From: Asterionella formosa
Lineage: Eukaryota
DNA length: 34,942 bases
Assembly (NCBI GenBank): GCA_002256025.1
Contig: NKIB01000141.1
Span: forward strand, 1 to 34,942
Direction of reading: 5' to 3'
Shown here piece after piece: positions 1 through 34,942 of the stretch (positions are counted from its first letter, which is position 1; each line of letters starts with the position of its first letter). The notes below the pieces were generated by a model. That model had not been told where the DNA came from and did no database searches. It saw only the letters and a list, made by a program, of their open reading frames with translations. Position numbers and translations under genes: made by a program.

Positions 1-1220
1 GCTGATGCCCCGTAATTTTCATACCGGGTATTGCATACCGGTATACTATGCAGTTGGGGTTATTCTACTATCATAGAGGATGATACGCCCGAATATTTCT
101 GCAGTCTGTGCGTTGCTACCGAGCATGCTGCTTGTTGCCACGTTGTCCGTATCCCTGGTACCTGTACCATGTACTGTACCGGTATACCGGTATACCGACA
201 TACTTACTCTGCTAACAAGAAGCAAGGCAGGTAGGAGCCAGAGATCCTGATATTACGCACAGACAGTTTCTTCGCGCGGGATCCTTTGATTATTAAGTTC
301 AATCAAACAGAAAGACGTACAGAACCTAAATGCCTCCTGTAGGTTCTACGTGTTTCTAATATTAACTGGTTTGATTTCGCCAAGTTGGTGGCGGAACTTT
401 GGCAAAACGACTCATTATTTTTCAGCCTCAAGGTGTGTATTAAGAAATGCCCTTTAGGAGCTCAGAACATGAGCATGTTATTGAGTTTATGACCATTTTA
501 ATGCCCCGAGGCTTCCGTAGATGAATGTGCTTGTCGTGGGAGGTTGAGAAAAGATGGAAGGAGAGTGTTGCACTTGTAAAACGACAGAATGCTGGCACAG
601 GAATGCAAATTCTGACGCCGATCGCCTCATCATTTGGGGGAATCACAGGCTGGTCTAGATTTGTATGGAGGAGCAACTTGAGGTTCAATGTCTTCTTTGA
701 ACCAAGTTGCTTCCATCCGTTTACTTATCAAGATCAGGTAGGACTCACTGGTGCAAGGGGTGCCGAAGCAAAGCGTTTACAATACCAAAAGAACAATGCT
801 GAATGTCGAGGTCGCATTTTCTTAATTGGAACGCAGGTTTCAATGCAATGCTAACCGTGAGGAATTCCATTCTTCTCAATGGCAGATCCAAACTCCCTGG
901 ACCAGAAGTGACCATATCTGAACCAAATTCTGACGAGCAAAGCGTTTTGGTCAGGCATCTGTTCACTCTCCTACCTTCTCTGTTTACTCCCCGTTCTCCA
1001 CTGATGACGTCACATCTAATTGAATCGGATACATTAGTAAATTTTTGACAACCTTGGAAAACATATTCGTACCTGGTATCAGATCTTCAACCGATTATAT
1101 TATATGAGAGTTATTCAAAATCGATTTCTCCTTTTTTAGGCACTCTGCCCCTTTTCACCATTTTCTCACGTTTGTGATCTTCTCCTCGAAACATGACAGT
1201 ATTTCCAAGAAGATTATTAT

Positions 1221-2546
1221 ATGAAGTTCGGACAGACACTGCGCGAAGATACACTCAAGGAATGGCGCTTTTATGCCGTAGACTACAAGGACTTGAAGAA
1301 GGCCCTAAAGCTCTCGTCCCTTGCAGATGACGACGACGGTTTCTTCCCAACAGATTCCTCCGACAATGACGAATCGCACAATCCTGCTGTGAATTTCGCC
1401 GAGTTTTTCAAAATCTTGGATAAATCGAAAGCCAAACTTGGTAAGTTTTACAACGAAAGGGAAAAGTGGGCATTGGATTACATTAAAGTTCTTGAGACCC
1501 GCGTGGAAGACCTTCGCAATGAAGCTGTCCCATCCTCACCTATTGATCCGAAGAGCATGTGCTCGTCTCAACCTGGGTCGTCTTTGTCAAACTCTTGTTG
1601 CTCCCTGGATAGCACCAACTCCCAAAACATCTTGTCCACTGGCTCGCCCACGGGTGTTATCGAGAACCTTGAGGCAGCAGCGGGGAAGGTGAGTTCTGGA
1701 AAAGAAGCTGTAGTCGTTGACTATGCGTGGCTCAAGGAAGAATACCGTCGAGTCGAAAGATCCAAGCACTTCCACGCTTTCATCTACGCCAAAAAGTCTC
1801 TCAAAACATTCGAACGTGAGCTTGGACTTTTGGTCGAATTTTTGGCCCTCAATGCAACAGCATTTACCAAGATTCTGAAAAAATTTGATAAGCAAACTAA
1901 GATGTCTATCAAAGAGGTGCAGCTAGCTGAACTCGAACGAACTCATGGATTCATGAAAGGCAAGGTTCTCTTGGAACTCAAGAAATATGTTTGTGAGCTG
2001 GTTGACGTCGTGAACTCCCTCAAGCCCAAACTTCCCGAAGGGTGGGAAAACCGCAAGGTTTACACTATTGGTTGCTTTGATCTTTTTCATAGAGGCCACG
2101 AGAACGTTCTTGTCTCGCTTCGTGAATTCGGCTATTATATTGTAGCTGGTATCCACGATGATGCGAGCTACTTCCAACTCAAGAATAAACACACAATCGA
2201 GAACCTCGAAACTCGCATGAAGAATGTTAAGCCATATGTTGATCAGCTCTATGTCATTCCATCCACAGACCCACTTCTGTACATCCAGAGTGTCGTCTCA
2301 GAGAAGGACATCGAGACTGGATCATGCTGCTATGCTCGTGGTGACGACATGTTGGACTTTCCCAGTCGTGACTGGGTTGAGAGTGTCATGCCAGTCCACT
2401 TTGTTCCTCGGACTGAGGCATGCAGCTCGACCTTGATTCGGACGATTTATCACTCAGCAGATAAGGAGCTGGGAGCCAAGGCTGCATTCGCCAAGACTCG
2501 CTATGACGGCAAGCCTGTCGATGAGGATGGAAACTTGCTTCCTTGA
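1221..2546 (+). CDS. SPX domain-cytidylyltransferase (HxGH nucleotidyltransferase, TagD/CCT/ECT-like) fusion protein, 441 aa, intronless
   Basis: N-terminus MKFGQTL..EWRFYAVDYKDLKK and LNATAFTKILKKFDK are hallmark SPX motifs. The C-terminal KVYTIGCFDLFHRGH, IVAGIHDD, RGDD and PRTEACSSTLIR match the CTP_transf_like family (HxGH and RTxGxS(S/T)T-like motifs). Confidence 0.92.
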   Translation: MKFGQTLREDTLKEWRFYAVDYKDLKKALKLSSLADDDDGFFPTDSSDNDESHNPAVNFAEFFKILDKSKAKLGKFYNEREKWALDYIKVLETRVEDLRNEAVPSSPIDPKSMCSSQPGSSLSNSCCSLDSTNSQNILSTGSPTGVIENLEAAAGKVSSGKEAVVVDYAWLKEEYRRVERSKHFHAFIYAKKSLKTFERELGLLVEFLALNATAFTKILKKFDKQTKMSIKEVQLAELERTHGFMKGKVLLELKKYVCELVDVVNSLKPKLPEGWENRKVYTIGCFDLFHRGHENVLVSLREFGYYIVAGIHDDASYFQLKNKHTIENLETRMKNVKPYVDQLYVIPSTDPLLYIQSVVSEKDIETGSCCYARGDDMLDFPSRDWVESVMPVHFVPRTEACSSTLIRTIYHSADKELGAKAAFAKTRYDGKPVDEDGNLLP

Positions 2547-2717
2547 ATGGAACAAGATTCGCCCGCTCTGAGGGGTTTTCTGCCAACCTACTTATTTCTC
2601 GTATCTTACATGATTAGGTGTATACATCGTTTTAAGGGTGCTAAATATTATTGTTAATATTGACAACTTGAATGTTCATCTACGACCTGGTTACCCAACA
2701 TTTCGCATGTGACTTGA

Positions 2718-3809
2718 CTAACTTTTGTGCGCCATGTAGTGCAGGTTAAAGCCGTCGTCAGGAATAGGGAGTGAGCGAATAGTGTGGAAACCTGCTTGTG
2801 CAAGCATTTCTGTTGCCTTTTGGTGGCCCCACATCATCCCTAGACCCCTACCTCCATGCACCATTCCAACTTGCATGCAATGCATTAATGATACTGTGTA
2901 AAGTAGGGGGCCTAATGGATGTGATGCATTGGATGCCAAGTCACTATCGGCTTTGACATCGATCATGGAAAACAGCCCGCCCGGTTTCAGGGCATCATAA
3001 ACACCCGACAAAACTGTCTCGGGCTCGCACTGGTCGTGAATGGCATCAAATGCGAGGACATAATCAAAGGAACCAGCATACTCTTCATGATTTACAATTT
3101 CGGCAGCGTCCATGGCAACAAAAGAAAGGTTGCTTATGTCCATGGCCGCTTCCGAGGCCTTGGCAATTGCATCTTCGTCCAAGTCCAGACCAACAAAAGT
3201 GGATTCCGGAAACTCCTTTGCCATCAACGCGATGGCAAGACCTTCACCACAGCCAAGATCCATGACGCGCATCCCACCTTCCTTGAGACGCGTAACTATT
3301 TGGCCATCATCGATGGAAGGTAGAAACGTCTGGATCAAGGTGTTCCTGTGCTTCTGTTCTGCCGCTTTCCCCATGAATGCCTGGAATGCGGGGTACTTCG
3401 AATATGGAATTCCTGCGCCAGTGTAAAAAGTCCTTTCAACGTCCGCATAGACACAACTAGTCAAAAGTGGTATTTCTTGACAATAGACTCCTAGATTATC
3501 GGACCCCGCTCGTTGACACAGAACGTCTCCTCGATGTTTGGGTAAAAAGTATTTGCCGTCCTCGACGACATCGACTATGTTTCCACTCACAACGATTCCG
3601 AGCCACTCCTGACATACCCTAGAATTCAGATTGGCTCGTGACGCCAGCTCACTACAAGTGAGTGGTTCGTCTGCTTGATCGAGAACTTCAAACAGACCAA
3701 CATTATAGCCAAGGCCAATGGCAACATTTAATGCCCCATAATTCAAGATTTGTATCATTCGCGACGAAAAATCCTCTGTATCAGTGGGATCACCCTTTAT
3801 TTCAGCCAT
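2718..3809 (-). CDS. Class I SAM-dependent methyltransferase with N-terminal winged-helix region (Rv2258c-like), at least 363 aa
   Basis: Motif I VMDLGCGEG, motif II FVGLDLD, FDYVLAFDAIHD and LKPGG, C-terminal LYTVSLMHCM...GLGMMWG, and N-terminal GLFEVL..PLTCSELASRANLNSRVCQEWL. The frame stays open from 3830 into the N gap, so the true start could lie further upstream. Confidence 0.9.
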   Translation of the reverse strand: MAEIKGDPTDTEDFSSRMIQILNYGALNVAIGLGYNVGLFEVLDQADEPLTCSELASRANLNSRVCQEWLGIVVSGNIVDVVEDGKYFLPKHRGDVLCQRAGSDNLGVYCQEIPLLTSCVYADVERTFYTGAGIPYSKYPAFQAFMGKAAEQKHRNTLIQTFLPSIDDGQIVTRLKEGGMRVMDLGCGEGLAIALMAKEFPESTFVGLDLDEDAIAKASEAAMDISNLSFVAMDAAEIVNHEEYAGSFDYVLAFDAIHDQCEPETVLSGVYDALKPGGLFSMIDVKADSDLASNASHPLGPLLYTVSLMHCMQVGMVHGGRGLGMMWGHQKATEMLAQAGFHTIRSLPIPDDGFNLHYMAHKS

Positions 3810-3830
3810 TTTCCCTGGTGAACTTTCAAT

Positions 3831-4291
3831 NNNNNNNNNNNNNNNNNNNNNNNNNNNNNNNNNNNNNNNNNNNNNNNNNNNNNNNNNNNNNNNNNNNNNN
3901 NNNNNNNNNNNNNNNNNNNNNNNNNNNNNNNNNNNNNNNNNNNNNNNNNNNNNNNNNNNNNNNNNNNNNNNNNNNNNNNNNNNNNNNNNNNNNNNNNNNN
4001 NNNNNNNNNNNNNNNNNNNNNNNNNNNNNNNNNNNNNNNNNNNNNNNNNNNNNNNNNNNNNNNNNNNNNNNNNNNNNNNNNNNNNNNNNNNNNNNNNNNN
4101 NNNNNNNNNNNNNNNNNNNNNNNNNNNNNNNNNNNNNNNNNNNNNNNNNNNNNNNNNNNNNNNNNNNNNNNNNNNNNNNNNNNNNNNNNNNNNNNNNNNN
4201 NNNNNNNNNNNNNNNNNNNNNNNNNNNNNNNNNNNNNNNNNNNNNNNNNNNNNNNNNNNNNNNNNNNNNNNNNNNNNNNNNNNNNNNNNNN
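3831..4291. other. Assembly gap (461 N)
   Basis: Run of n characters; ORFs crossing it are artefacts. Confidence 1.
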
Positions 4292-4648
4292 AACCAAAAA
4301 AAAAGGAATCATGTAGTTTAATTCATACATGAATATATTTATGTATTTCTCTTCACTGCTTGACTTTCGACTGGGTGCAAGCCAATAAATACCGGTACAT
4401 CGATGACATTCGCCTCATCGTACATTTCTAGCATAATATCAAATCTTGGAATTTCTTCCTTTTTCGTGGTGAGTGTCAACTTGGGAATCGATTTACAAAG
4501 CTAAACTGGTGTGCCATACAAGAACAGATAAATAATCATTACAGTTCATAGTACATTTATGACTCTTCTTGTCATCGCGAAATATTCAAGCAGCTGCCAA
4601 TTCAGTCCTCCAATTATTCATTTCATTTCAGGCTCTAGCAGTTGAGTT

Positions 4649-5605
4649 TTAATTTCCGAAAACGACACATTTGTTCTCATACACAACAATCCTATCTTCT
4701 AAATGTGCCTTTACAGCCTGCACCAGAACATGACGTTCCAAGACGCGTCCCTTTGCCAACAAGTCATCAACGGTATGACGGTGGGAGATTCGGTCGACAT
4801 CTTGTTCAATAATGGGACCTTCATCTAAATCCGCTGTGGCGTAATGAGCGGTAGCACCCACCAACTTGACTCCACGAGCATGGGCTCGATGATAGGGTTT
4901 TGACCCAATAAATGCAGGCAAAAAGCTGTGATGAATATTGATCACCGCATATTGAAAGGCATTGCAAAACTCGTCAGTAATGATCTGCATATACCGGGCC
5001 AGAACGACAAGTTCAACACCAAGTTCCTTCATGAGCGCCAATTCAGCGTCTTCTTGGGCACGCTTACTGCTGCTGGTAATGGCAAATACTTCGAACCGGA
5101 TGTTGAATTGGTCCGCAATATGGCGCAAATCGTCGTGGTTGGAGATAATAAGCGCAACCTCACATGGAAGTTCCCCCGCTTGGTGACGAAGGAGTAATTC
5201 CCAAAGGGCATGGTCATATTTGGACACCATAATACTGCATCCATAGAAAACGAGGGAAGTCTGATGAGTATGTGGAAAGGAAATGATTAAACGAACAGAA
5301 ACAATAGTCCACTCAGCTTACCAAATCTTCTTTTTGGAATCTCCCCAACTTAATTGGCTCTTCATCTGGAATCTCGCACACACTTCACTTATCCCCTTTT
5401 CCAGAGAGATACGATCGGTGTGCATTGTACCGTACTCAAAGACGATGCGCTGAAAGAATCGATTGGCTCCAATATCCGTGTGCTGCTCGGCATCTATAAT
5501 ACCACATCCGTGACCATAAAGGAGCTGGGCAAAAGCGGCTACGATACCCTTTGTATCTGGGCCTTCAATGCGGAGGATGGCTTTTTTGATTGATTTGTTT
5601 TCCAT
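4649..5605 (-). CDS. purU: Formyltetrahydrofolate deformylase, 289 aa; exons 5605-5322 and 5234-4649
   Basis: ACT-like N-terminus (GPDTKGIVA) and formyltransferase domain with VVLARYMQI, INIHHSFLPAF.G.KPYHRAHARGVKLVGATAHY...LDEGPIIEQD. An 87-nt intron (5321-5235, GTAAGC...TGCAG) restores KKKI-C-IMVSKYDH. Confidence 0.96.
5235..5321 (-). other. Spliceosomal intron of purU (87 nt, phase 2)
   Basis: GTAAG donor, pyrimidine-rich body and CAG acceptor; joins the two ORF halves in frame. Confidence 0.9.
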
Positions 5606-7159
5606 GTTTTCTGTTGGGATTGATGTTTTGATTGGTAGATATAGGTGCGGTGATTGTAGTCGATGATGGTCGATAAAATGTGTGCGTTAATACAGTGGTC
5701 GTACTTCAAATTCAATCGATCAGAACCCCATCCCCAGCAATCTTTAGTTCTTGTTCGAGTTCAATGGTGCTTCCCTGAAATTCGAGTTTGTTCTTTCCTA
5801 TTCTACCGTTGTCCCAGGTATGTCACAGGTAAGTAGTCATACGTATTCGTACGGTCTAGCATAGCATTGAGCGGCGGTACAGGTATGCATACAAAGGAAT
5901 CCATGTGATCTGCCTTCGAGAAAATATACCGTATCTTGCTTGCTGCAGAGTGTTGGCTTTCCACGCGTAATGTGTTCGTCGCCCATAAATAGAATTACTG
6001 AATGTATGATGTACAGTATGTGTGACAAGAAGCATAGCTCAACACATCATGACGTTCCACCACTGACAGCTATAGGTTGAGAACTGAATGAGAATCCCTA
6101 ATACAATCCACCCTTCACATTTATTTCTCAGATTGACATTTGGATATGATACAAATGGGAAAGGGAATGAGATGGAAGGTACTACTAGCTACTACTACAC
6201 CAGAATTTTTGTCAAAATCCTATGTATTTTGACAAAACTGCAATGAAATATTTTTTTATCTTGAGTAGAAATGATGAACATGATTGGCAAGCTGTGAACC
6301 ATGGAGTATGTTGCTTCTTGCTGGTATGTGCGTTTTTAGGGTATACTTATTACATTTGGCTCATTGTTGTTTATTGCTTTGTCATGATCCTTGTGATCAG
6401 TCCTCTGCTGCTGTAGTTCGACAATTGTCCTTTCACATAGACTGAACAATGTTGGGAGACACCAAGGTGAATGTTACATTTGGGAATTATTAATCCGCTG
6501 GATACTGATGAGACCTTCGACACAGGCAGGCAAGGCGATCTTTCATCAAAAGTCCGATCAACTCCTTGCTTGGAGTAGGTTGATTGTTTGGTTTGCTGTG
6601 TTGCCATTCAAACTTCAACTAACTCCCTCTCCATTAGTCGGCGGTGTTCGTGATTCAATGGAAAGCGACTGCACGGGAGAGGGCTTCTGACAAATGGAAC
6701 AGGAAGAGGATGATGCGGCTATACTTTTATTGCACCCACAAAACCAAGGAACCAGCACGTGTTGGGCAATTTCCAGGTGGCCATATTTTGGAGTTGCTGC
6801 TGGAGAGTAGTGTTACATCCGAAGAATTTTCTTGTTCTTGGTACCTTCTGTTGGATCAAAAATGGATTTTACATCCAACAATCTGTCAATCGACCTATCC
6901 ATCAGCCTTACAAACTGACTGGAATGGGGAATGATACATGGATACTCTATAATGGTACCATGGTACCTGGTACCCGAGGTAGCACTCGTAAGCGTTTGTA
7001 TATAATAGTTAAGCTTGGATTATTCGATTCTTTACTGTAGATAATTAATCTACCAGTACACCGGTAGCACCTAGGACGTCACTAAGTGGTGATCACCATG
7101 TGAATTGATGACGTTTTCTATCTCAACAAAGGCCTGTCCTGCGTCACTACATCAATTTC

Positions 7160-7202
7160 AGCAAAATGACCGCAACTTGCAGCAAGTTGCGGTCATTTTG
7201 CT
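7160..7202. repeat. Perfect inverted repeat with 21-bp arms and a 1-nt spacer; diverged arm copies at ~7247-7273 and ~7324-7339
   Basis: AGCAAAATGACCGCAACTTGC-A-GCAAGTTGCGGTCATTTTGCT read directly from the sequence. Confidence 0.95.
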
Positions 7203-7573
7203 TCAACTAACAATTTAATATGGGATAAAGATAGCTAAACTTTTAGTTTCAGCAAAAATACCGCAACTTGCAGGTACCGGTACCAGGTTCCACTTTAGCT
7301 CCCTTGCTTTATCATTTGTTAACAACCGCAGCTTGCTGCTACCAGGTACCAGATACACTATTTTAGGGTACCAGGTACCGTAGACAAATACGCACATAAT
7401 ATATAATACCGGTATAATGATACCGGTAAGTTGATAACAATATTCATCAGTGAGGATAGAATCTTGCTTCCTCAGGGCTCAGAATCACCATTATATACCG
7501 GTAGTACATTCACTTATTAGCAACATAAACGCTCACTTCTCCCATCATCGCTCACACTCATAGCCTTTCAAGC

Positions 7574-9235
7574 ATGTCAGCGTCCACATCTCAGCAAGTC
7601 ACGCTGGTGGTGGCCACTGCCACTGCCACTGTGTTCACCATGATGGGAGTGGGCATCGCCCTCCTCCAATCCGACATGGTGGGTCGGAAGATTCTTTCTG
7701 TGCCGCATCTAATCAAGAAGCGGCAGGCGGAATACCGCTACAAATGGTCCAAGCAGTTGGAAAAACAAATGTACATTGCCATGGACATTCTAGGCGGAGA
7801 AATGGCCCTTTCGCTCCTAACGTCGGACGAGGAAATGGACGACTTTTTGACTCAATGTATCGAACAAAGCAGTGACGCGCGGGTGTTGGGAGTGGGCCTG
7901 GACGAGCGAGACTCGCGAGCTGTTCCAGAACATTATGTTTATATTTCCTTTCAGAGTCTCCTGTATCAGCTGCCCTTGCGATCTTTTGGTTTCAAACTGG
8001 CGGACAAGATGGAGCATCAGCTGACAGCGACAGCGCTGTGCTTTGTAGCGGATGCATCGAGTGGACTGGGATTGAACCTTGTGGGAGACTTGTTGACCAA
8101 AAGTGGAGCCAATGTGGTGAGTTCAAGAATCTCATCTCGATGAAATCAGTACACACTAGTTTCATTTATTGAATCCTAGTTTTACTTTGGTGAAACTTTT
8201 GTTTCTGTTCCTCATTTCCTCACATATTTCATGTCTTAGCCTGTCATTCGTGAGCCACTGTGGATGGCCCAGTTTGCGCAAATGGTTGAGCAAGATATTA
8301 TGGCAACAGAAACACTGGAGCGCCTTTTGTTTGGACTGGTACGATTGGAAGCCCACCGGGTCAGAGACCAGGTGGGTCCACTTCGCACTGTAGCGATGAC
8401 TGTGGCCCAATCGACTGTGCCATCCTTGCTTCCTTTGTTACAAAAAGTATTTGCCGAGGAGCGACACGTTTTTTGTTATGACGGATGTCGATCCAGCGTT
8501 GGACGAGCTATGATAGGGAGAAAGAACGAAAAGGACGTACATCAGGGAAGAATTTATCGATTGAATTCAACTCTACTCCAAACTACCCCACTCTCGTTGG
8601 ATTTGACCAAAGCTGTCCCAACCTTGGCACCAGCTCTTGCGAACCTTCCAATTTATCTAGCTGACACGACTGAAACATGGATGGCCAGTGTGGACACTTT
8701 TTTAAAGTTAAAGGAGGAGGAGAAAACAAACAATTACCTTCCATTCGTTTGCAAAATGGGCTTTTTGATGAATGATTCCACTATTGAAGAAGGGACAGAA
8801 CGATATTTCGCCCTATCCAACCTCTTGCAATTCATAACTGGATCTAGAACCCGTCCACTTGATGATGTGGTGATAGGAATGGCGTGTTCCATTGTAAAGA
8901 ATTATGCGTACGAGAAGCCACCACCTTTTCCTCCTATAGTTGTGAAGGACATTGAAGATTGCGTTTTTCGTCATAAATCGATCTTGATTGGAGAAAAAAC
9001 TCTGAAAGATACTGTCTTGCCGACCAAGCATTGGACACTCAAGGCAGCGCTCAAATCTGGATGTTCTTGTTGTGCCCCCGAAGAAGTGGATGAAGAAGAA
9101 TTGAACTACTTCAAGGCGAAGAGGCTGGCGGATGCCAATGATACTGATTTTGAGCCTTCATCATCCATGAAGACAAAACCAAAGTATGTGGATGGAAAAA
9201 CAACCTTTGCGTTCGACCCTTCGAAATTTGGTTAA
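7574..9235 (+). CDS. Hypothetical protein, 512 aa, N-terminal transmembrane anchor, possibly a degenerate sulfotransferase-like fold; exons 7574-8116 and 8240-9235
   Basis: Two same-frame ORFs joined by a 123-nt intron (8117 GTGAGT...CTTAG 8239), giving ...SGANV|PVIREPLWMAQF. Hydrophobic stretch at about residues 9-31. The fold assignment is a weak inference. Confidence 0.8.
8117..8239 (+). other. Spliceosomal intron (123 nt, phase 0)
   Basis: GTGAGT donor, T-rich body, TTAG acceptor; contains an in-frame TGA at 8141-8143. Confidence 0.85.
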
Positions 9236-9612
9236 AACCTTACATGTTTCTTGAGAAAGTTGCACGTATGTAGCAAATATTGGGTAGAATTTGTAGAAAC
9301 ATGCAGTGATATGAAACGCAGTTAAAATTTCTCACGTTGTACAAAAGAAAAAGTGGCGTCACCTGTGGACGAGTTTGTCACGTTGTCATCATCATGGTGT
9401 AAGCTCATTTCATCAATACCTTAATGGAACACCATGAAAAAAAATCCCACCTGCAACATATAAAATAGTCATTGGTTTGCAATTTGTTGAGACTAATAAT
9501 ATATTTGTTCGAGGCTTAAGTGAAGCATGGTACCAGGTATCATACAAAGTCTGATATTCCAAGATAGAACTTCAAATAGGACAAAAAGTTCAAAATACTT
9601 GCTCACATCATG

Positions 9613-10893
9613 TCAGTTCGGCCATTGTTGTAATCCTTCTCCGATTGTCCTAATAACAAACTTGCCAAGATGATCGATAGGTGCCAGGGTCACAAACATG
9701 CACTCCCCATTTGGCTTATCAAAATCTACGGGGACGCACTTTCCACGTAGATTAAAATGTTCATTTAGAATGCGGCGCAATATATCTCGTCGTCGTCCCA
9801 GTTTCTTTGGCTGTAACATGATTTTAACATCTTGAAGCGTGGGTAACCTTTGCAGTTGTAAGTCGGCATTGATTCGAAACAGAGCTTCCTTAGGAGACAC
9901 GAAGCGCGGAACAAACGATCTTGTGTTAATTTTAGGGACAATGGAAAAGGAGCCTTGATTTTCTAATCTTTTTTGGTATGCTGCTTTGGCACGTTCTGAC
10001 CGTAATCGTTGTTTATCCTTCATCGCTGCCTCGTCAAGACAAAATAACGCATCTCGAGGTAGCTTTTCGTCTGTTCTTGCTTCAACGTAATAGCTCGTTC
10101 TATTTTTCATCGACTTGCCCCTCCTCCGATTGGATATGACATATATTACAACAGCGTCGTAAATCTCCTCTTCCGTCATGGCAGCCAGTTCCTTACTGTC
10201 AACAATCTCGGATGGCACTGCGAGCAATTTTTCATCAAGCCGTCGATTTTTCTTGAATTCCTCTGTCATTATTGTCTTGCCGGCCCAACGCTTTTCGTAC
10301 CATTTCTTTCGAAACTCCGCGTCTTGCCATTGCGCTGATTTCGCGTTCGAGCGTCGAATGCGTTCTTCAGACGGCCCAGATGGATGTGTTGTAAAGACCC
10401 CGCCACCACTATAAATTGACGTATCACCGTCATCATAATTTTCAAAGACCACTTGATCTGCATGCGGTTGTAGCAGGAAATCCTGCTGTTCTTCCGAGAT
10501 CAAGTCGCCGTAACTAGGCCGGTCACCGTCAGGGGAGTTGTTGTTTGTGTACAACAATTCTGATGGATCCTCCCAAAAGTATCCCACCGAATCTTTCGAA
10601 AAGCTCGGAAACAACGCGGAGGACTGCTGCTGTGCCTGTTTCCGTCGTTCAAACTGCTTCCATCCGAGTTTGTTTCGTCGTTGGAGATAGGCGCGGCAGG
10701 CAAGGAGGGTTTCTGCATCTGATACCTCGGAAAAGTCGACGAGGATGTCTTCGTCATTGTCTCTTTCCTGACTCATTTGTATTCTTGAATTAGGTCTGGA
10801 GGCAGGTTTGGGCAGTGCGAACGACAGCACGCAGGTAGTCACTGCCATGAGCGACAGGAGGGACTTTGGCAGGATCAGCTGTTGTTTCTTCAT
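9613..10893 (-). CDS. Hypothetical protein, 426 aa, predicted bipartite plastid-targeting presequence
   Basis: Long uninterrupted ORF. Signal-peptide-like MKKQQLILPKSLLSLMAVTTCVLS followed by Phe at +1 (FALP) and an S/R/P-rich, acid-free transit-like segment. No domain recognised. Confidence 0.8.
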   Translation of the reverse strand: MKKQQLILPKSLLSLMAVTTCVLSFALPKPASRPNSRIQMSQERDNDEDILVDFSEVSDAETLLACRAYLQRRNKLGWKQFERRKQAQQQSSALFPSFSKDSVGYFWEDPSELLYTNNNSPDGDRPSYGDLISEEQQDFLLQPHADQVVFENYDDGDTSIYSGGGVFTTHPSGPSEERIRRSNAKSAQWQDAEFRKKWYEKRWAGKTIMTEEFKKNRRLDEKLLAVPSEIVDSKELAAMTEEEIYDAVVIYVISNRRRGKSMKNRTSYYVEARTDEKLPRDALFCLDEAAMKDKQRLRSERAKAAYQKRLENQGSFSIVPKINTRSFVPRFVSPKEALFRINADLQLQRLPTLQDVKIMLQPKKLGRRRDILRRILNEHFNLRGKCVPVDFDKPNGECMFVTLAPIDHLGKFVIRTIGEGLQQWPN

Positions 10894-11975
10894 TCTGAAC
10901 TCGGCATGCAGAGAGATATCAATTCAACCTACTGATATACTATGATATGTACTCCTGGAATACTATACTGTTTCTTAATCTGTGGCATCCCAACCTGCAT
11001 ATGTATGGAAATAGGTGCTGACACTTGTTTCCAATCGCCGCCATTGTCACTGTGAACAAAGCAGGAGGTTACCGGTAGCTGATGTCAAGAATATTAGCCC
11101 GAGTCACAAGGATTGTGGACTCGATTGTAATCCAACGAGTCGAATATTGCATTGCCATGTCAATCAGCTAGCTAACGAGATCAAAGATTGAAGATTTCTA
11201 TGGAAATATTAAGTGGAAACTCGAAGAGAGTCTTAGAATGACTTTGCGGGAAACAAAGATGCATGGAAAGGAAACATTTAGTTTATCTTTTAATTTAATT
11301 TGAGTTTAGATTATCAATTGAGGAAGAAACAGTGTGTTAATTGACAGGAAGGTCAATTAGTTCAGCTACCGGTAGCAGCAAGGCTATGAGAAGCAGAGAA
11401 GAGAGGAACTAAGTAGTATTACGGTAGGTAGTACTACGAGCACGTAAGAGTCTACGTGAAGAGAGACCCAGCCCGCGGGAAGGAGTACGGACCTTTTCAA
11501 CAAATGATAATTACCTACCGGTATACCTGTACTGGTATGCTGATGAAACATGTTGGCTGCTGTGTATCATCACAACCAAATACCGGTACGTAGGATATAG
11601 GTGAAACACAGAAAGAGTTAAGATTCCTGATTCTCAACAAGGTTACGGTATCATAAGTCGGTGAAATTTTATTTTCAAAATATACCGGTTGGCCGAAAAA
11701 AATGTTGTTGAATCATTGTTAAGGAAATCGATTGAGATAAATGCATCCTGCTGTATGAATGATTTACATATGGTGGTAAATAGCGAAAAGGATGAAGAAC
11801 ACTTTAAAGAACACTATTATTTATTCCAATTTATTCATGAGAATAACAAATCACCCTCCTACATGTAAACAATACTTTTTGAACCCATTAAAAGTATAGA
11901 GGTACCTGTCTAATGGTCAAATATTCTTCAATATATTAGGAACTCCTACAAAAATACCTCTTTCTTCGACAAAAG

Positions 11976-23900: not shown

Positions 23901-24200
23901 TTCATTTGGATCATGCAACTTTGCCCAAGGGACTGTGATTTCCACTCGCTTGATGGTACATGATAGAACATCGACTGGAATGCCTCTGGCTCGGAAATAC
24001 TCGTTCAGCAGCTCTTTCTTAAATTCCAATTGTTCCAAGGAAACATAGCCTGACCAAACTCCCAAGTTGGTCCATGAATTTTGGTTGATGTTGCTACCGG
24101 CACTAGGCGCGGAGGTAGATGTGGACGACGTGGAGTCATCGGAGATGAAATACTTGGACAAGAGGCGAGAAAGAACCTTTCCCGCAAGGCGTTCAAACAT
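11976..24200 (-). CDS. VPS13: VPS13-family (chorein) bridge-like lipid transfer protein, ~4029 aa; exons 24200-19470, 19400-16425, 16358-11976
   Basis: Chorein_N start (MFERLAGKVLSRLLSKYF..LGVWSGYVSLEQL..VEITVPW..IHIRNVHVRVED), WWEYA, YHNRRLVAWEPVVEPW, VAB/SHR-BD motifs (IRNETGL, PFRIENHT, FAWDEP), GIGISIVD..PQELVY..IDNQL..TPYPVLL, and RNPRLF plus a PH-like C-terminus. Two GTAAGT...TAG introns join the three ORFs in frame. Confidence 0.93.
16359..16424 (-). other. VPS13 intron 2 (66 nt, phase 0)
   Basis: GGA TTG|GTAAGTTGC ... TTTTTTTGCATAG|ACC ATT; restores the VPS13-like IRNETGL-TIRF. Confidence 0.87.
19401..19469 (-). other. VPS13 intron 1 (69 nt, phase 0)
   Basis: AAG TCG|GTAAGTTTG ... 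GAGTAG|ACC GAT; joins EVKS to TDSSNAVEILG. Confidence 0.82.
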
Positions 24201-24804
24201 GGCGGCAGCCTCCTAGATTGTGATCGCACTAATATGTTGGCGCTAATGTTTGCTTTTGCTATGGATCTGTGACTGATGTGTACATATACTGCCGGTTATA
24301 CCGGTAGTTAATAGAGTCTTCATGAAGCAACCCTTCGGTTTCGTGAAGACTACGAAAACGTGCGGCCGTACATACCGGTGGTACCAGGTACCTGGTCCTC
24401 TATCTTTTGAGTTGCTTGTTGTATTTTGTGGCCTTCTATTTTAGTGATGATGGTGTCCGTTAAGATACTGTGTCTGTTACCTTGTACCTGATGGTACACT
24501 GGTACTCCTACCACATAGCAAGTAAATAACAATACTCCGGAGTATTTGGTATGCTAGGAATACTGCTCCCTCGTACATAAAGCGTATGTAGCCTCTGTTG
24601 TTTAACGGTAGTTAGCACGAGTGAGTAAAATGATGACGAGGAATTTAGTACCGATAATGTGTAAGTAGTAGTATTGTGATATGAATACCGGTATGTATTA
24701 TTTACACAAGCAATACGTCATACATAGAGCCACAAAAGACCCGAAAAGTAATTAATTTGGAGCCATTTTGGGGGGGAAGATTTCGAGTGTTTTCTTTTTT
24801 CTGT

Positions 24805-25045
24805 CCGAAATCCAAATTGGGATATTTGCCAAATAGGTATTTTTGATACCAATTTGGCAAAAAATTAGTCAGATATGTTTAACCTTAATCTAGATTTTTA
24901 TTTAGCCTAATAAAAATGCCAATTTGGATCCAAATTAGTATCAATTTTATATTTATTACCAATCGGTTTCCAAATTGGTATCTATTGTTAGTATTGTGAT
25001 ATGGTTTGAAACATTGCTTCCAATTTGGATCCAAATTGGTATATT
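24805..25045. repeat. Cluster of CCAAATTGG/CCAATTTGG motifs including a 20-bp palindrome; probable subterminal region of a DNA transposon or MITE
   Basis: CCAATTTGGATCCAAATTGG at 25020-25039 (perfect palindrome) and a near copy at 24919-24938. Single motifs at about 24812, 24829, 24849 and 24970. Confidence 0.7.
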
Positions 25046-25283: not shown

Positions 25284-25702
25284 TTATATTCCGTTTTGGT
25301 AGTAGCATACAAAAATTAGTAAATTCAATGTTTGCTTGCTGGAAGGTCACATAGCTCATTTGACTATGTCCAGTAGAAATATTTGCTGATACTAGTATTC
25401 ATGATGCCACCATGATGATCCTTGTGTCCAACAGGGATTATTTCTGGTATAATCCTTGTTATATTCAGTTTTGGTAGTAGCATACAAAAATTAGTAAATT
25501 CAGTGTTTGAGCTCATTTGACTATGTCCAGTAGAAGTATTTGCTGATACTAGTATTCATGATGCCACCATGATGATCCTTGTGTCCAACAGGGATTATTT
25601 CTGGTATAATCCTTGTTATATTCAGTTTTGGCAGTAGCATACAAAAATTAGTAAATTCAGTGTTTGCTGGAAGGTCACATAGCTCATTTAACAATGTCCA
25701 GT
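25284..25702. repeat. Tandem duplication, about 2.5 copies of a ~175-bp unit (second unit internally deleted)
   Basis: GTTTTGGYAGTAGCATACAAAAATTAGTAAATTCA recurs at 25293, 25468 and 25625 (spacings 175 and 157). Confidence 0.92.
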
Positions 25703-25704
25703 AT

Positions 25705-26106
25705 AATGCCATGACCTTGTAGTAGTGTGTACCCCAAATGGCGACCACTTGGTGGATTCGATGTTGATTATTTCCATCCAGAAAGTCCCTTAATAAAGTC
25801 TGATTCCCTGATCTCGGTGTCTATTTGTTGAAGATGCTTGAGAGCTGGTGGTGCCGTCATTTCTGTTATGAATTCTTTGACTCCTGAAAAGCACTCTTCA
25901 TCGATGTTTTCAAATGGGGTGCCTTCAAGTACATGGTCCGCGGCCTCTGAGATCCTGTTGAATCCCAGTAGATCGCGCATAGTTCCATGGCCAAATTGAG
26001 AGGTAGACGCTTCTTGATCATATTGGTATGAGCCGTGTTCGCGAAGAGCAGTCTTGAGAGATGAGGATTCAAATTTTGTTGCCCAGCCATGTGATTTCCT
26101 AATCAT
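25705..26106 (-). mobile_element. Degraded fragment of a non-LTR retrotransposon ORF (Ambal-like, region upstream of the RT domain)
   Basis: Translation FGHGTMRDLLGFNRISEAADHVLEG...DFIKGLSGWK*STSNPPSGRHLG/HYYK resembles the W.E.TSTSPSGRHLGHYK motif I recall from diatom LINE-like elements. It has an internal TAA (25768-25770) and a frameshift. Confidence 0.7.
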
Positions 26107-26770
26107 CTTCTACAAATAAAAACTATCATGTTTCCATGATGCATCATAGGATTGTGACTTTTTTCGTTATATCATCTATTAATTTTGATAAATGCCCTTG
26201 TAATTTAAATAGTAACCCTTTTGACTACATATATTTAATTATATATATTGTTTCTATTAGATTCCTGTATTCGAATTTCTTGGTAGGATAATGTACCACC
26301 TGAAGTAATGTAATTTGGCTTGTCATTTCCATCCGTCATCACTCTGATTTTTGCAACAACAACGAAATACTAGCAATGACAAGTGGAATGATTGTTTGCG
26401 ATGACAATGTCTTCAATTGTTGGTCAAGTGATCATTATATCTTTGAGTAATTGTCATGTGCATTTAACCTTTGTTCATAATCATTCAATTAAGAGTTTAC
26501 AGAGAAGAAATCATTCGAACTCGTAATGGTTCCGCACACAGCGCACATTGTAAATCCGTTTCATCAACCACCAGCATTACAATCTCGCCAATCAACCCGT
26601 AAACAAACACATTCTACTTGTTCTCGTTGACATTTTCAATTCTCACATGATAATACATCTACTATTGAGATTCAGCATAGAAGGAGATAAGAAAATGTAA
26701 CAGACTAGCTACTGTCCACATAGCTATAGTTATAGAATGATTCTGATTACAATTTCGTTTTCATGTGTGT
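26104..26770. repeat. Diverged dispersed repeat, copy 1 of ~650-700 bp (paralogous to 30880-31575)
   Basis: Shared collinear blocks: TTTCCATGATGCATCATAGGATT, TAATTTAAATAGTA..ACCCTTTTGACTA, ATTTCTTGGTAGGA.AATGTACCA, CACTCTGATT.TTGCAACAAC, ATACATCTAC.ATTGA. Confidence 0.85.
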
Positions 26771-27314
26771 AAGTGCACTGTCGACTTGTGTACATTACAG
26801 GAGTGACTTAGCAACTAAAGTGTGTGTTATAATATCATGCTCCATAGTACGATGCAGAATACTACAGTTCCCAATCATCTCATCATGATTGATAAGATGA
26901 TAATGTGATATCACTATAGTGTTACATCGATGCATACATCACCAAAGTATGATACATAATATTGAATAAAGTATATCACATAGCTATGATGCATTGATCA
27001 TAGAACTATGATGATTTCTTAAAATGTTTATGATATAATTTTGATCAAAATATGATCATGTTAAAATAATACAATAACAATAAAATACGATAAAATATGT
27101 ACGCAAGTGTTATTGATACATCATAGAAAATAAATAAATCATAGAGTATGTTACTTAATATATAAACTCGACTTTTAATGTATACAGTAAAAGCCAACAG
27201 TTAATATGATAGTATTATACGGTGTATAGGATCTAAGTATATGGATGCGTTGACATGTACATGACTATAATATGATTTGTGATATGGATTGATGCATATC
27301 ACATACCGGTATCC

Positions 27315-29270: not shown

Positions 29271-29538
29271 TTCAAATGATGACAAAGTCAGGATATGAAA
29301 AGGATAGAATGAAAATGAATTATTAATAATAAATTTAGCATCACTCCGATCATGCTATGCTGGACAATACAGAGTCGTGAAATTATCACTCCACCATAGT
29401 AGTAAAACTAGAGGTATACCGCTACATACAGTACAGGCGCCACTACTAGTAGTATAGAGCAACATCAATGTTTTCCTAACATCTATGATATGGTTTGTGC
29501 ATTGTAGAAGTCTCACACTAACTATATTTATTATGTAA

Positions 29539-30265: not shown

Positions 30266-30414
30266 CTACAATGAAATGAATTATCAGCCACTACATATAA
30301 TATTTTACGCTGTTTAGATATGATACCATAAAACCAACAGTGCTATTTACATTATCATTTACAAAATCAGAACCGAGTTTGAGTAATAGCATATCTTGTT
30401 TTCAATTATACGAT

Positions 30415-30883
30415 TATACAATCATAAAAATGTGATGATTTACTGTTCCGCTACAGTAGCAGCAGTCATGAACATATGGTGTTCTGTTGCTTGTTTACTA
30501 CTCCGACTACTCTCTTTCAATTTTACAATCGTACAATCCTAAAACTATGATGATTTACTGTCCCGCTGCAGTAGCAACAGTCATGAACATATGGTGTTCT
30601 ATTGCTCGCTTACTAATCCGACTATTCTTTTTCAATTTTATGATCATACGATCCTAAAACTATGATGATTTACTGTCCCGCTGCAGTAGCAGCGGTCATG
30701 AACATATGGTGTTCTGTTGCTCGCTTACTACTCCGACTACTCTCTTTCAATTTTACGATCGTACAATCCTAAAACTATGATGATTTACTGTCCCGCTGCA
30801 GTAGCAACAGTCATGAACATATGGTGTTCTATTGCTCACTTACTACTCCGACTATTCTTTTTCAATTTTATGATCATACGATC
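30415..30883. repeat. Tandem array, 4 x 115 bp, with A-B-A-B higher-order (230-bp) structure
   Basis: GATGATTTACTG at 30434, 30549, 30664 and 30779. Diagnostic variants alternate (CTGTTG/CTATTG, ACTACTCTC/ACTATTCTT, GCAGC/GCAAC). Confidence 0.95.
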
Positions 30884-31575
30884 GTCTGCAAATAAAAACC
30901 ATCATATTTCCATGATGCATCATAGGATTATGATCATCTGATCATAATTTTTCGTTAAATCATCTAATAATTGTAATAAATGCCCTCGTAATTTAAATAG
31001 TAGTAACCCTTTTGACTATGGAAATTTAATTATTATATGTATTGTTTTTTTTAGGTTCCTTTATTTAAATTTCTTGGTAGGAGAATGTACCAGTGAAAGT
31101 AATGTGGTTTGGCTCATCATCCTCTCCAGTCCTCACTCTGATTCTTGCAACAACGACAAAGCAGCCATGTCGAGAGGAACAAGATTTTGTGATAAAATCT
31201 TCATTTGTCGTTCAAGTCTTCATATGTCTTCGATGAATCATCATGTACATTGCACAGTATGTTCGTACTATGCAATCCGTTAAGAGCTTAAAAAGAAATC
31301 CAATGAAAACGAAATGGCTCATCACACAAGACGAACATTTCCGGTCGGTCTGTCACCAGAGCATCAATCAGTGTTACAACCTCAATCATAGCTAGTAAAC
31401 AACATCCATTATAGAACAGCACAATCTAATTCTCCGTAACATCGTCTCTCTAACAAGAACGTCATACATCTACAATTGAAACGCAGCATAGCAGGCGATA
31501 TGCACAAAGAAGCATGAGACTGTGCCGTCTATTTATAGTAACAGAGTGATTCTGGTTTCGTAATTTTCATGTCTC
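30880..31575. repeat. Diverged dispersed repeat, copy 2 (paralogous to 26104-26770)
   Basis: Same collinear blocks as copy 1, direct orientation, about 4.8 kb apart. Confidence 0.85.
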
Positions 31576-32470
31576 ATTAGATTTTCTTTGTCATCGTACT
31601 AGTTCCTTACCTTTGAAGACAGGAGCGTAGCTATTCTTTGATGTATCTGGAATATTTCAATGGATGGCAGCAGTTGGATTTAGACACAAACCTCGACAAA
31701 AGCACTAGTACCTTGTACATGTTCATGAAAAGCGAGACACTTTGCTTGGCCTATCGCCCACCAGCCAGTCTATACTGCAAAAATGCAAGAAGCACAAGTT
31801 GAATGCCCATTTATGGATTCAAGTTTCAGTAGTGCAACAATGTAAAATATTAGAAAACGGAAGTCACATTTCATCTAATTATGGTTTTCATTAGCTATAC
31901 TAGTATTGATTGAGAGGAAGCAATGGTAGAATGGCTGCCAAACGGGCGGAGGCAAACACAGAGAATCCTACTAATTTTTCTTCCCAATGATCCCAGTCCC
32001 TTCTTGAATGTCACTTGCTACAGAAAATGTAGAACAGCCGCCATGATCTGTTGATTGTTGCTTTATGGTGCCACTGACCGAGACCTCCAGAAATCTCAAT
32101 GAGTTGCTTGTTTCTTGACTTGAATGCAAAAGGGACGGTCATCGAAACCAGTGGAAAAATCAAAAGGGAACTAAAAATGGTGCTCTGCAAACATCATCAG
32201 GACAATTGTGAAAGAGAAATGAAGGTTCTTGGGAGGAGAAGTAAAGGGATAATTGCTTCTGCTGGTCTTGCGGGAACAAGAATAGATTGACCCAAACAAT
32301 GTTGACAAATAGTTACCTACGGGAAAAGGACGCAATGCTTTCGGCATCATCAATCTATACACAAGCCTGCGCCATCTGTCGTCGTCAATATAGCTACCTC
32401 GACTTCATCAATGAAGAAGGCGATGGGTGGAGCATGTGAGGAAAATCGGGGTTGAGGTTTTCTTGACGCC

Positions 32471-32534
32471 AACGTGGACCTGCTTTGCTGAACTCCTTGC
32501 AAAACGTGGACCTGCTTTACTGAACTCCTTGCAA
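32471..32534. repeat. 32-bp tandem duplication (one mismatch)
   Basis: AACGTGGACCTGCTTTRCTGAACTCCTTGCAA twice. Confidence 0.95.
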
Positions 32535-34942
32535 ATGAAGGCATTGAGTGACCTGATGGTCCTGTGAAGCCAAAGGGTAAAGAAAAATCTATGACAAGGT
32601 TAGTGAGATAGTATTTAGGAGGGGGGAGCAAAAGTTATCATAGTAGCTGAACGCATTCAAAACTTGTATAGACAATAAATGGTGGCATGCCATGGCTGCT
32701 CTTGGCTGACAGCTGCCAAGTCAAGTACAAACAAAACGAGCAAGGGTGCACAAAAGACAGTCCAATTTTAATCGACTGCTGGCTGATACTTAGCTGTGAG
32801 ACTCACCATTCTGTAATGGGGTGGACATTATTCATTGCTTCGCTCAAAGCACAATCAATTCGAATGCTGTCCAGTGAAACAGCCAATGAAAACAATTGTG
32901 GCGAAAAAGCGCAGAACAGATCAAGAGCGAGATTTCATAGCAATTAAAATAACAGGGCATATACTATGATGCACTGCTCCTTGTGTAGACTAGCTATATT
33001 TGATCATTTCCATATTTCATACTATACAGGTGCATGGATGACTCCTCCCGCCCTTTCATTATGCAGCCATGTTGCGATAATTCTGCAGGAACTATAGGAT
33101 TGGTAGTCTGGTGGTCATCATTTCCGCATTGTATATACCAGTAGGAGTCATGTTTGCATGCATGCTGCGCTAGTTCTTACAAGACATAAAAATTTGGTAG
33201 CTTGGTGGTTATCACTTCCCTACTGTATACAGGGGGAGAGGGAAGGGGTTGCATGCATGAGCAACTTCCTCTCCCGTATAAACTATGATCTTTAATCAAT
33301 GAATTTAGATTTGTTTATCCTATAACTTTGATCATAACATATTGATCATATGATGAACAATGTCGTTGATGAGAAAATGAACGACCAACATTTATTTTCA
33401 AGAATCAGGATCAATCGATCTTAAAAATATGATCAAATGATCCTAAACACATGAGCATATTCAGTTTCCGCTGCACTATTGTGGTATTTCCATGATGGAA
33501 GTAATTACCAGCAATTATACAGGACTACCGGTAGGCCATATGAATTTTGGTCAATATGTCTATATACATAAATGTATGATTTCGACCATTTGAAAAATTG
33601 GTGATGACTCCCGTTTATTAAGGGGCTTAATTAAATCAGCCACTGACTTGTAGGTACAAGAATTGACACAAAAAAATTGAAAAAACTCATCAGGTCATGG
33701 AAAACTATGAACTCATCATGCATTGTATATGTTTGAATTACGTATAATCAAAATTGATGAAAGTATACACAGGATGTGCCGTATCATGAGGGTGTTTCAA
33801 ACTATGAGAATGTTCAACTATATATACATTTAAACTTCTTACAAATCTTTATATATATGTATTCATGGCTGAAACATTTGAAATCATGTTTTCATGTGGT
33901 TCCTTGTCATGCATACATTTTGCTTCTGAATTGAAGGATTAACACAGATGATGACGCGGAAAACGAAAGTGATAATAAAGCACAATGAGCGATACTTGCG
34001 GCTTAGAAGAGAAGGGCGGAATCAATTGATGGTAAGTCAAGAGCGAATGCCTGTCATGTTTCTTGTCATGCTGCATCCACTTCCTGAAATGAAGGATCTC
34101 AAGCAACGAAAAACTGAAGTAACAATACACCATGCGGCTAAGAAGGAGTGAATATGATCGGCGGAGAAGGGCGGAATCAACAAGCTGTGTATAGTATCAC
34201 AGCATGTCAAGAGCATATGCCAGGATGATCAATTGTTGAGATTACAATTACGGAATGACTCGTCCCCTTTCAGTGATTCAATAGCTCCTTTTCGATTTGG
34301 TGACTGGCCAACCATCAATGGCTGTGGACAAAAGAAATCGGTAAGTGCTGCCTATCAGCCATCTTGCTTTGGATCAATCTACAAATGTTAGAAAAACTGA
34401 CACATATGTGTTGCTTCTTTCAGGATAATGGTAGACAAACAGTAATTGTAAGTTACAAACAGCAGTGTTGGAGCCCATTTATTGATCGATACTTTGCTTC
34501 TCATTCAATCTTCGACTGACACATTCTTCTACAGAAATATGCATCAGTTACTTCCTCAATTTGTGGTAAGTGAAGCAAGATAGAAGCGAAATGAATGTTG
34601 TTGTGTAACCAAAACATGAACAGCTAACAATGAATTGCTTCTCTTTGTTAGTATGATTGGGAAAACGAAATGGATTAAATAGTAATAGGAAAATGCGTGA
34701 ATGCAAACTCACATCCGTCAGGAGTAAATGGAACAAAGCAAGCAGGGGAACAACGGCAAGGCAACCAGTGCAACAACCTTCAGAATTGGATTGGGGGAGG
34801 GGGAAGTGAAAGTGAAAGTGAAAGCGGCACCAACAATCATTGCGATGAGAGCATTGTAGAACATTCTGTAGCCACTTAAGATATGATAGAATCATAGAAC
34901 CATTCTTAGCTAAATATAGTTCTAAATATCGATCAATTTCAT

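Follow-up and report, generated by a model that had tools for sequence, protein, structure and literature searches.

Why should one short palindrome recur so often between the genes of a diatom? The question arises from a 34,942-base stretch of the Asterionella formosa genome (assembly GCA_002256025.1, contig NKIB01000141.1; hereafter the window), in which a preliminary description, made from the letters alone, had counted 16 exact copies of the octamer TACCGGTA, likened them to the cyanobacterial element HIP1, and listed an insertion process, an excision footprint and a dimeric DNA-binding protein among the candidate explanations. The host is a freshwater diatom: sequencing runs labelled algae, freshwater or lake-water metagenome contain the stretch, and the named relatives of its SPX protein (Coscinodiscus, Attheya, Minutocellus, Seminavis and Pseudo-nitzschia, at about 60% identity) are all diatoms, in agreement with the eukaryotic host that the description had supposed. 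Here we propose that TACCGGTA, TACCWGGTA and TACCATGGTA are, with fair probability, excision footprints of TA-targeting Tc1/mariner-type elements, mostly non-autonomous MITEs (miniature inverted-repeat transposable elements), and that a word of regulatory appearance probably preserves the traces of earlier transposon traffic. Directly seen were the anatomy of the words, the gain and loss of whole units at TA dinucleotides, and a high-copy MITE whose ends match the words and, where they carry CCN, mostly follow a TA; for an insertional origin of the units at TA our confidence is high.

The recount found TACCGGTA 16 times in the window, at the positions first reported (starts at 36, 177, 185, 4390, 7275, 7407, 7421, 7496, 11070, 11367, 11516, 11581, 24299, 24686, 27304 and 33526). 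In 100 dinucleotide-preserving shuffles the word occurred 0.09 times on average and at most twice, an order-3 Markov model predicts 0.45 copies, and no other 8-mer of the window is as strongly over-represented as TACCGGTA. The related TACCNGGTA occurs seven times against 0.09 expected (starts at 22, 1070, 6964, 7340, 7369, 9531 and 24382), and the word has 32 matches, against an expected 5.06, if one mismatch is tolerated. The spectrum of spacings is sharp, TACC and GGTA being adjacent in 16 cases, one letter apart in 7 and two apart in 1, with spacings of 3 to 6 letters occurring 0 to 2 times each. All enriched words share the frame TA + CC + 0-2 letters + GG + TA, and isolated 8-letter copies prevail in the window (16 versus 6 W-forms). 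An A precedes 10 of the 16 copies and a T follows 7 of them, and five read ATACCGGTAT. The other details first described were also found again: the related forms, the copies in tandem (177-196), the palindromes nested in one another (6954-6967 and 24383-24396) and the apparently CpG-decayed forms TACCAGTA/TACTGGTA at 7051, 11530 and 33136. Besides these, GGTATACC occurs four times against 0.48 expected, and TACTAGTA, with four copies against 0.32 expected, is the second most enriched TA-framed palindrome.

The copies are confined to non-coding DNA, as had been claimed. With coding intervals approximated from open frames, Pfam matches and RNA contigs (the N run at 3831-4291 being counted within them), none of the 16 copies falls within the roughly 18,942 coding bases and all 16 fall within the roughly 16,000 non-coding ones, where 16 of the 25 occurrences of CCGG lie inside TACCGGTA. 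Thirteen of the copies stand in intergenic stretches of the gene-dense left 24.7 kb, and clusters of the word stand upstream of four genes. The flanks, said to be unrelated, mostly are, which argues against one simple transposable-element consensus; the copy at 7275, however, adjoins a high-copy MITE, and those at 11070 and 11516 flank another high-copy repeat.

We next turn to other strains. Contigs from the DNA runs of three other studies (X2, X7 and X14) and from a poly-A RNA run (X9) were aligned to window positions 1-12500. The copies at 36-192, 4390, 7407-7503 and 11516 are present in the X2, X7 and X14 DNA contigs with few differences, so that an assembly artefact, which the preliminary description had wished to see checked against independent reads, can be ruled out. 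Among 12 of the 49 indel rows, at least two indels are whole motif units. At 11581-11588 the window and X14 carry TACCGGTA, while X2 and X7 are without six letters and keep a plain TA (six letters missing in X2 167.8/167.8, X7 5.3/9.2 and X14 0/6.86). The reverse is seen at 5861: the window and X14 have a plain, empty TA (5862-5863), and X2 and X7 have seven extra letters, TACCAGG, and read TACCAGGTA (X2 145.1/145.1, X7 2.5/2.5, X14 0/8.46). An alignment of strains had been suggested as a way of telling small insertions from substitutions, and at both sites the strains differ by the presence or absence of a whole unit at a TA. A substitution is found at 1070-1078, where 1076 G>A in X2, X7, X14 and X9 destroys the word TACCTGGTA.

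A candidate source of such units stands in the window itself. The element that we call MITE-1 (7182-7273) is a 92-nucleotide (nt) hairpin element with the core GCAAGTTGCGGT and 36-nt terminal inverted repeats that are 83% complementary; its DNA fold has an energy of -22.8 kcal/mol (z -5.86). One end is adjoined at 7273-7290 by TA + CCGG + TA + CCAGG, that is, by one in-phase unit that includes the TACCGGTA at 7275. In the bin 7090-7506 the depth, which is a sum over all aligned contigs and not a copy number, reached 55,698 in X2 (baseline about 165), 1,305 in X7 (about 4) and 2,177 in X14 (about 9), and contigs of other MITE-1 copies diverge from the window at 7180/7182 and 7278. Given this excess depth in three DNA runs and the many contigs diverging at its edges, MITE-1 is a high-copy element in this genome. 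In the same three runs the consensus flanks of its other copies end in TA-CC[AT] just before the core.

Two more pieces of the element lie close by. A solo MITE-1 terminal repeat on the plus strand (7156-7182) stands head to head with MITE-1, the 21-nt arms being 100% complementary and 1 nt apart; the two ends (7156-7202) make up a perfect 21-nt palindrome with one letter between, and this double end looks like an aberrant or nested transposition product. At 7316-7380 a degenerate terminal repeat runs to about 7336 and is followed by TACCAGGTA at 7340 and 7369; X2 record 14 (137 nt), aligned to 7322-7465 with 7 gaps, is 7 letters shorter than the window over that aligned span. An E-value scan of 7120-7320 against Rfam gave 62 weak hairpin matches, the best of them to mir-450 with 28.5 bits against a gathering score of 60. 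A likeness of the MITE-1 ends to a microRNA-founding, mariner-derived MITE of animals was considered and dropped, as that family is absent from these 62 Rfam matches.

Does the association of MITE and word hold outside the window? A search of public metagenome contigs with the MITE-1 end returned 49 loci, of which 26 were chance matches, mostly in GC-rich or long contigs, and 23 were diatom-like; leaving out eight duplicates (L010, L012, L021, L026, L029, L027, L046 and L043), 15 distinct diatom-like loci remained. These 15 MITE-bearing loci (22,716 bases) hold 16 copies of TACCGGTA, 50 of TACCWGGTA and 72 of GGTACC, compared with 3, 1 and 24 in the 26 chance-match loci (245,798 bases); the loci having been selected through the MITE, these counts show an association and not a genome-wide frequency. 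Several of them have arrays beside the MITE, made of (GGTACCT)n or (GGTACCA)n, the longest of which run to four or five units. Counting the window and the 15 loci together, we obtained 29 distinct MITE-1 ends. Their outer edge carries CCN in 21 of the 29 cases (CCA, CCT, rarely CCG, with GG at the opposite end), TA precedes 13 of these 21, and seven of the 13 have TACC(N)GG units in phase right beside them, three such units in one case and one or more in the others.

Three of the diatom-like loci, L014, L046 and L027, are versions of one ribosomal DNA (rDNA) spacer locus of a related diatom, with the first 47-69 positions of a eukaryotic small-subunit rRNA at their ends (Rfam). Over 1,290 aligned columns, L014 and L027 differ by 37 mismatches and 7 indels, and five of the seven indels are GGTACC/TACCGG units of 6, 6, 7, 7 and 13 letters. 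One TACCGGTA is complete in L027, with a plain TA in its place in both L014 and L046. The 13-letter indel is a double unit (6 + 7) at a TA inside the MITE, found in L027 only, with the corresponding emptied 28-32-mers in L014 and L046. Moreover, L014 and L027 each carry a 6-letter unit at different TAs 4 nt apart, and without these units the two versions read the same; such a pair requires two separate events and cannot be made by slippage or substitution. At 11581 and 5861 of the window, and at three places where L027 is compared with L014 and L046, the scar-free allele is a single TA. A second group of loci differs mostly by ordinary tandem-duplication indels, together with two 7-letter changes within arrays. 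As a separate observation, a diatom-like contig that overlaps the rDNA-spacer loci encodes a reverse-transcriptase domain (RVT_1, E 3.2e-09, L029:4296-5057, minus strand).

Of the candidates first put forward, we favour the insertion process or excision footprint, in view of the exact 6- and 7-letter units at TA and of a high-copy MITE with the matching ends, CCW...WGG, which where they carry CCN mostly follow a TA. In this scheme an element would land at a TA and duplicate it, so as to sit as TA-[CCW...WGG]-TA; excision by staggered cuts would leave two or three end letters at each flank, and end joining would seal the site as TA-CC-GG-TA, TA-CCW-GG-TA or TA-CCA-TGG-TA. Such scars would be tolerated only outside coding sequence and would accumulate at preferred landing places near genes. 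As each scar offers a new TA in a GGTACC context, repeated landing and leaving would build up adjoining units and eventually (GGTACCW)n arrays. The scars need have no function, although some may later serve as protein-binding sites. We infer that the units were made by excision of the MITE-1 family or of CC...GG-ended relatives, and the arrays appear to have grown through repeated cycles of landing in the TAs of earlier scars rather than through slippage. The model would account for the lack of copies in coding sequence, for flanks that are unrelated but biased towards A...T, and for the in-phase arrays beside MITE ends, and it would explain GGTATACC as two scars at neighbouring TAs. TACTAGTA, in turn, is the 2+2 scar form that would be expected of CT...AG-ended, Stowaway-type elements. 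It stands at 25390, 25547, 29444 and 31898; three of the four copies read ATACTAGTAT and two lie within a 157-nt tandem duplication.

A footprint is recognised by two TAs with a few letters between them that correspond to both ends of an element, and the words here correspond in this way to the ends of MITE-1. The proposed steps also have precedents: Mos1 targets TA and cuts three bases inside its own repeat (PMC4344528), the footprints of Stowaway and of Osmar5, a mariner-like element of rice, consist of 1-4 terminal-repeat letters within a duplicated TA (PMC1925063), and taCATGta is a footprint of Tc1 in Caenorhabditis elegans (Eide and Anderson 1988, as cited in PMC3520976).

Several observations weigh against an origin by excision. 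One-sided scars (TACCWTA/TAWGGTA) are not enriched, with 3 observed against 7.7 in simulations, and the window holds only one MITE-1 site versus 23 scars. Since 8 of the 21 CCN-bearing ends have no TA and 8 of the 29 ends have no CCN, the TA duplication at MITE-1 ends is a majority rule and not a clean one. The depth over MITE-1, being summed over contigs, does not translate into a number of elements. Pfam gave no transposase in 15 frames of the window or in the locus frames scanned, 29 out of 52, repeated versions of a locus being skipped. Among the aligned contigs and related loci there is no allele pair with MITE-1 in one strain and a scar at the same TA in another. Each presence or absence of a unit could also be a precise deletion between two TAs, which leaves its direction unproven, and the 7-letter changes inside arrays could be slippage.

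Two further points of this kind belong to a different explanation, in which TACCGGTA acts in cis on gene regulation: TACC/GGTA half-sites at a spacing of 0-1 would be bound by an abundant dimeric protein, such as a Myb-related or bZIP factor that stramenopiles have in common, and selection would retain the copies in promoters. One is that the same word is enriched upstream of oomycete genes and predicted there as a transcription-factor site. Indeed, TACCGGTA is the 'high-confidence' predicted site M94 of Phytophthora infestans (PMC3597505) and motif-9, found upstream of 1,284 Phytophthora genes (PMC3520976), and ATACCGGTAT, the longer form that is shared by five of our copies, stands upstream of 206 genes of Plasmopara halstedii (PMC10031896). 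The other, a weak hint, is the position of two RNA-contig ends, which lie 24 and 35 nt away from a copy. The clusters upstream of four genes are likewise in line with promoter sites, and a sister palindrome, TACATGTA, has a known binder, PsMyb37, identified by yeast one-hybrid and gel-shift assays (PMC11134190). No binder is named for TACCGGTA, however, in the passages of the oomycete literature examined, the available text of a P. infestans binding-array paper is without CCGG, GGTA or TACC, and our literature search found no diatom paper that gives the word as a motif. Protein binding also leaves unexplained why exact 6- and 7-letter units come and go at TA, two of the events being independent and 4 nt apart, why up to four units adjoin, and why arrays are in phase with a MITE end; moreover, copies also stand in transcribed 3' or untranslated (UTR) stretches (22-196, 4390 and 9531), in an rDNA spacer and inside a MITE. 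This explanation, the main rival to the footprints, we consider unlikely. On its own, the dimeric-protein candidate of the preliminary description fails to account for the unit indels, the adjoining arrays and the copies in a MITE and an rDNA spacer, but such a protein may have a secondary or later role, the same word being a predicted oomycete promoter motif. Footprint and binding site can both be right if scars were later adopted as sites.

The remaining alternatives concern the kind of process that writes the units. Another TA-directed small-insertion process, such as an unseen CC...GG-ended family or aborted transposition, might have produced them, with MITE-1 simply using the same landing spots. 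The unit indels at TA are observed in either case, and MITE-1 is linked to them only by its matching ends and by neighbourhood. That 8-letter copies prevail in the window (16 versus 6) while 9-letter forms prevail beside MITE-1 (50 versus 16) hints at more than one source, and a second TA-flanked CC...GG palindrome family is present at 24811-25045. Against this stand the ends of MITE-1, which supply exactly the letters needed (CCA, CCT, rarely CCG), the arrays in phase with these ends, and the scan of the window for TA-flanked inverted ends, which gave no other candidate element; we hold such a process to be improbable. Replication slippage of a GGTACC(W) microsatellite, with the 8- and 9-letter words as remnants of decaying short arrays, seems more improbable still. 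It is suggested by the (GGTACCT)n/(GGTACCA)n arrays in the related loci and by the 7-letter changes within arrays, but most window copies are single with unrelated flanks, array-type G...C flanks are found in only one of the 16, units arise at a plain TA without a prior repeat, and 6- and 7-letter units are mixed in one insertion. There remains HIP1, an octameric palindrome that is iterated far above chance in cyanobacterial genomes, is frequent inside genes and is tied to a methyltransferase. A comparable palindrome spread across the genome by methyltransferase- or repair-linked bias would share with TACCGGTA the eight letters, the central CG and the strong over-representation, and the CpG-decayed forms at 7051, 11530 and 33136 would suit it. 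HIP1, however, is bacterial and also fills genes, whereas here the roughly 18.9 kb of coding sequence are free of all 16 copies, the copies arise by insertion of units at TA and not by biased substitution, no link to a methyltransferase was seen, and a MITE has the matching ends. The analogy drawn in the preliminary description is thus not supported, and we regard this explanation as barely credible.

The remaining motif sites, from left to right, are as follows. The cluster at 22-196 comprises TACCGGGTA (22-30), TACCGGTA (36-43) and two adjoining copies of TACCGGTA (177-192) followed by TACC. It is covered by X2 record 9 (1-3829, 0 gaps), and as RNA record 25 covers 1-258, it is transcribed within the UTR of a neighbour gene. 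A single TACCGGTA at 4390-4397, between a methyltransferase and a formyl-transferase gene, is covered by X2 record 10 and X7 record 20, and RNA record 27 reaches 4383. At 6954-6972 the sequence GGTACC-ATGGTACC-TGGTACC contains units with 2-letter and 1-letter centres, TACCATGGTA and TACCTGGTA. Three single copies of TACCGGTA (7407, 7421 and 7496; 7407-7503) lie upstream of a gene starting near 7527, which is also where RNA record 28 begins, 24 nt past the copy at 7496 (contigs cannot fix a transcript start). TACCAGGTA at 9531-9539 stands between two convergent genes and inside the same RNA record, and TACCGGTA at 11070-11077 lies 35 nt past the end of that record (11035) and 5 nt before a high-copy repeat. 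Beyond the repeat, TACCGGTA at 11516-11523 is followed by the one-mismatch forms TACCTGTA and TACTGGTA. The cluster upstream of the VPS13 gene (24299-24693) holds TACCGGTA at 24299 and 24686, TACCGGT-GGTACCAGGTACCTGG at 24373-24396 and many GGTA/TACC half-words. The last two copies are single: ATACCGGTAT at 27304-27311, to the right, where the window is rich in AT and poor in genes, and CTACCGGTAG at 33526-33533. The RNA contigs give no cover at 259-501, about 2920-4170 and 5839-6672, and are uninformative there.

The high-copy repeat just mentioned is about 420 nt long (11083-11502), has TG...CA ends with loose ends at 11083 and 11502, and contains the TACCGGTA at 11367; from its end letters it may be a solo long terminal repeat. 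Its depth in X2, summed over contigs as above, is 74,503 (10843-11259) and 64,506 (11260-11676) against about 165, with a similar excess in X7 and X14. Many of its other copies skip 11326-11455, the portion with the 11367 word. An RNA contig lies over 11183-11361 within the repeat. The scan for TA-flanked inverted ends returned six pairs in the window, two of which involve motif copies (11070/11374 and 24686/27311); as element ends these two were rejected and taken as chance, since only 6 of 8 letters match beyond the 8-mer and these letters are not common to the other copies of the 11083-11502 repeat either.

Six genes fill the left part of the window. An SPX-cytidylyltransferase gene (1221-2546, plus strand) encodes an SPX domain fused to a cytidylyltransferase-like domain, a fusion that is kept at about 60% identity across the diatoms named above. 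The methyltransferase gene (2718-4322, minus strand) matches families of small-molecule/S-adenosylmethionine (SAM) methyltransferases in Pfam and is the only methyltransferase gene in the window; a run of 461 Ns (3831-4291) lies inside its region, where the DNA contigs of the other runs end at 3829 and restart at 4323-4388. An RNA contig reveals one intron in the formyl-transferase gene (4649-5614, minus strand). Two genes of unknown family (7527-9235, plus strand, and 9613-10923, minus strand) precede the 12-kb VPS13 gene (11976-24212, minus strand; VPS13_N Pfam match). Scans of the window gave no Rfam match at gathering score and no tRNA. From 24.7 kb onward the window is AT-rich and gene-poor. 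At 24811-25045 this part carries an iterated 9-letter near-palindrome, CCAAATTGG / CCAATTTGG, with four 20-23-nt copies of a double form, several of them TA-flanked; these repeats may be a second CC...GG-ended micro-element or the longer scars of one. The same part also has tandem repeats at 25353-25666, where two units of 157 nt are 99% alike, and at 30399-30973, where about five units of 115 nt are 64-93% alike. In addition, a repeat of some 260 nt is dispersed there, its two copies (26105-26366 and 30881-31160, 80-91% alike) being separated by 4.8 kb.

If read as scars, these words let the former activity of transposons and their choice of landing sites be followed at little cost in diatoms, a group in which DNA transposons have been little studied, and they show how short tandem arrays and new palindromic sites arise beside genes. 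They also bear on motif discovery: pipelines take over-represented upstream palindromes as transcription-factor sites, and if a cut-and-paste transposon can write the same 8-letter word once in every kilobase of intergenic DNA, a strain-level check for indels is needed. Excision footprints and Stowaway-like MITEs as such are already known. In the literature on diatom promoter palindromes, mariner-like elements, MITEs, Tc1 and footprints, we found no report of the word or of abundant scars in diatoms. What is new is the scale, the scars being the top non-coding word at about one per kilobase, together with the in-phase arrays beside the element, a diatom host with a CC...GG-ended family, and the link to oomycete motifs.

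The closest parallel is with Stowaway and Osmar5 (PMC1925063). They share with the system proposed here the TA target and its duplication, a hairpin MITE, scars made of a few terminal-repeat letters between TAs and the occurrence of more than one kind of scar at a single site; the landing of an element in the TA of a previous scar, as suggested for our arrays, has its counterpart in a Stowaway element that re-inserted at the TA of an older footprint. Those scars, however, were described at one intron site across species (the Triticeae beta-amylase gene), whereas here they are the top non-coding word of a 35-kb window; the letters are CC...GG here versus CT...AG in Stowaway/Osmar5, and the in-phase arrays beside the element and the diatom host are further differences, as is the fact that no autonomous partner was seen here. 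The Tc1 footprint taCATGta (as cited in PMC3520976) has the same frame, TA + two letters per end + TA, and is also an 8-letter palindrome, but it is described as rare and stems from CA...TG ends instead of CC...GG.

The comparison with oomycetes, which like diatoms are stramenopiles, reaches further. Their M94, motif-9 and streme-5 have an 8-letter core identical to TACCGGTA and are very abundant upstream of genes, and M93, motif-1 and AM-20 correspond to TACATGTA, the word bound by PsMyb37 (PMC11134190), as distinct from TACCGGTA here. By its letters, TACATGTA has the exact form of a Tc1 scar. Seidl et al. weighed a footprint origin of TACATGTA and set it aside on account of its abundance and conservation (PMC3520976). 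As the diatom data show, a word may be abundant without this speaking against an origin as scars. It is possible, although we would sooner doubt than affirm it, that transposon scars and not selection for binding gave rise to the TA-framed palindromes that abound in stramenopile non-coding DNA, including the oomycete TACCGGTA and TACATGTA. If this were true, elements re-landing in their own scars would leave in-phase trails and seed thousands of identical palindromes near genes, and some scars would later have been adopted by factors such as PsMyb37. Effector genes lie in transposon-rich regions, and the enrichment of the words at these genes would then be a by-product of transposon traffic. 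Whether the abundant oomycete motifs TACATGTA and TACCGGTA are footprints is a once-dismissed question that has now become directly testable. In the oomycetes TACCGGTA has been read as a transcription-factor site, whereas in the diatoms the comparisons between strains and between versions of one locus give unit-wise insertion at TA.

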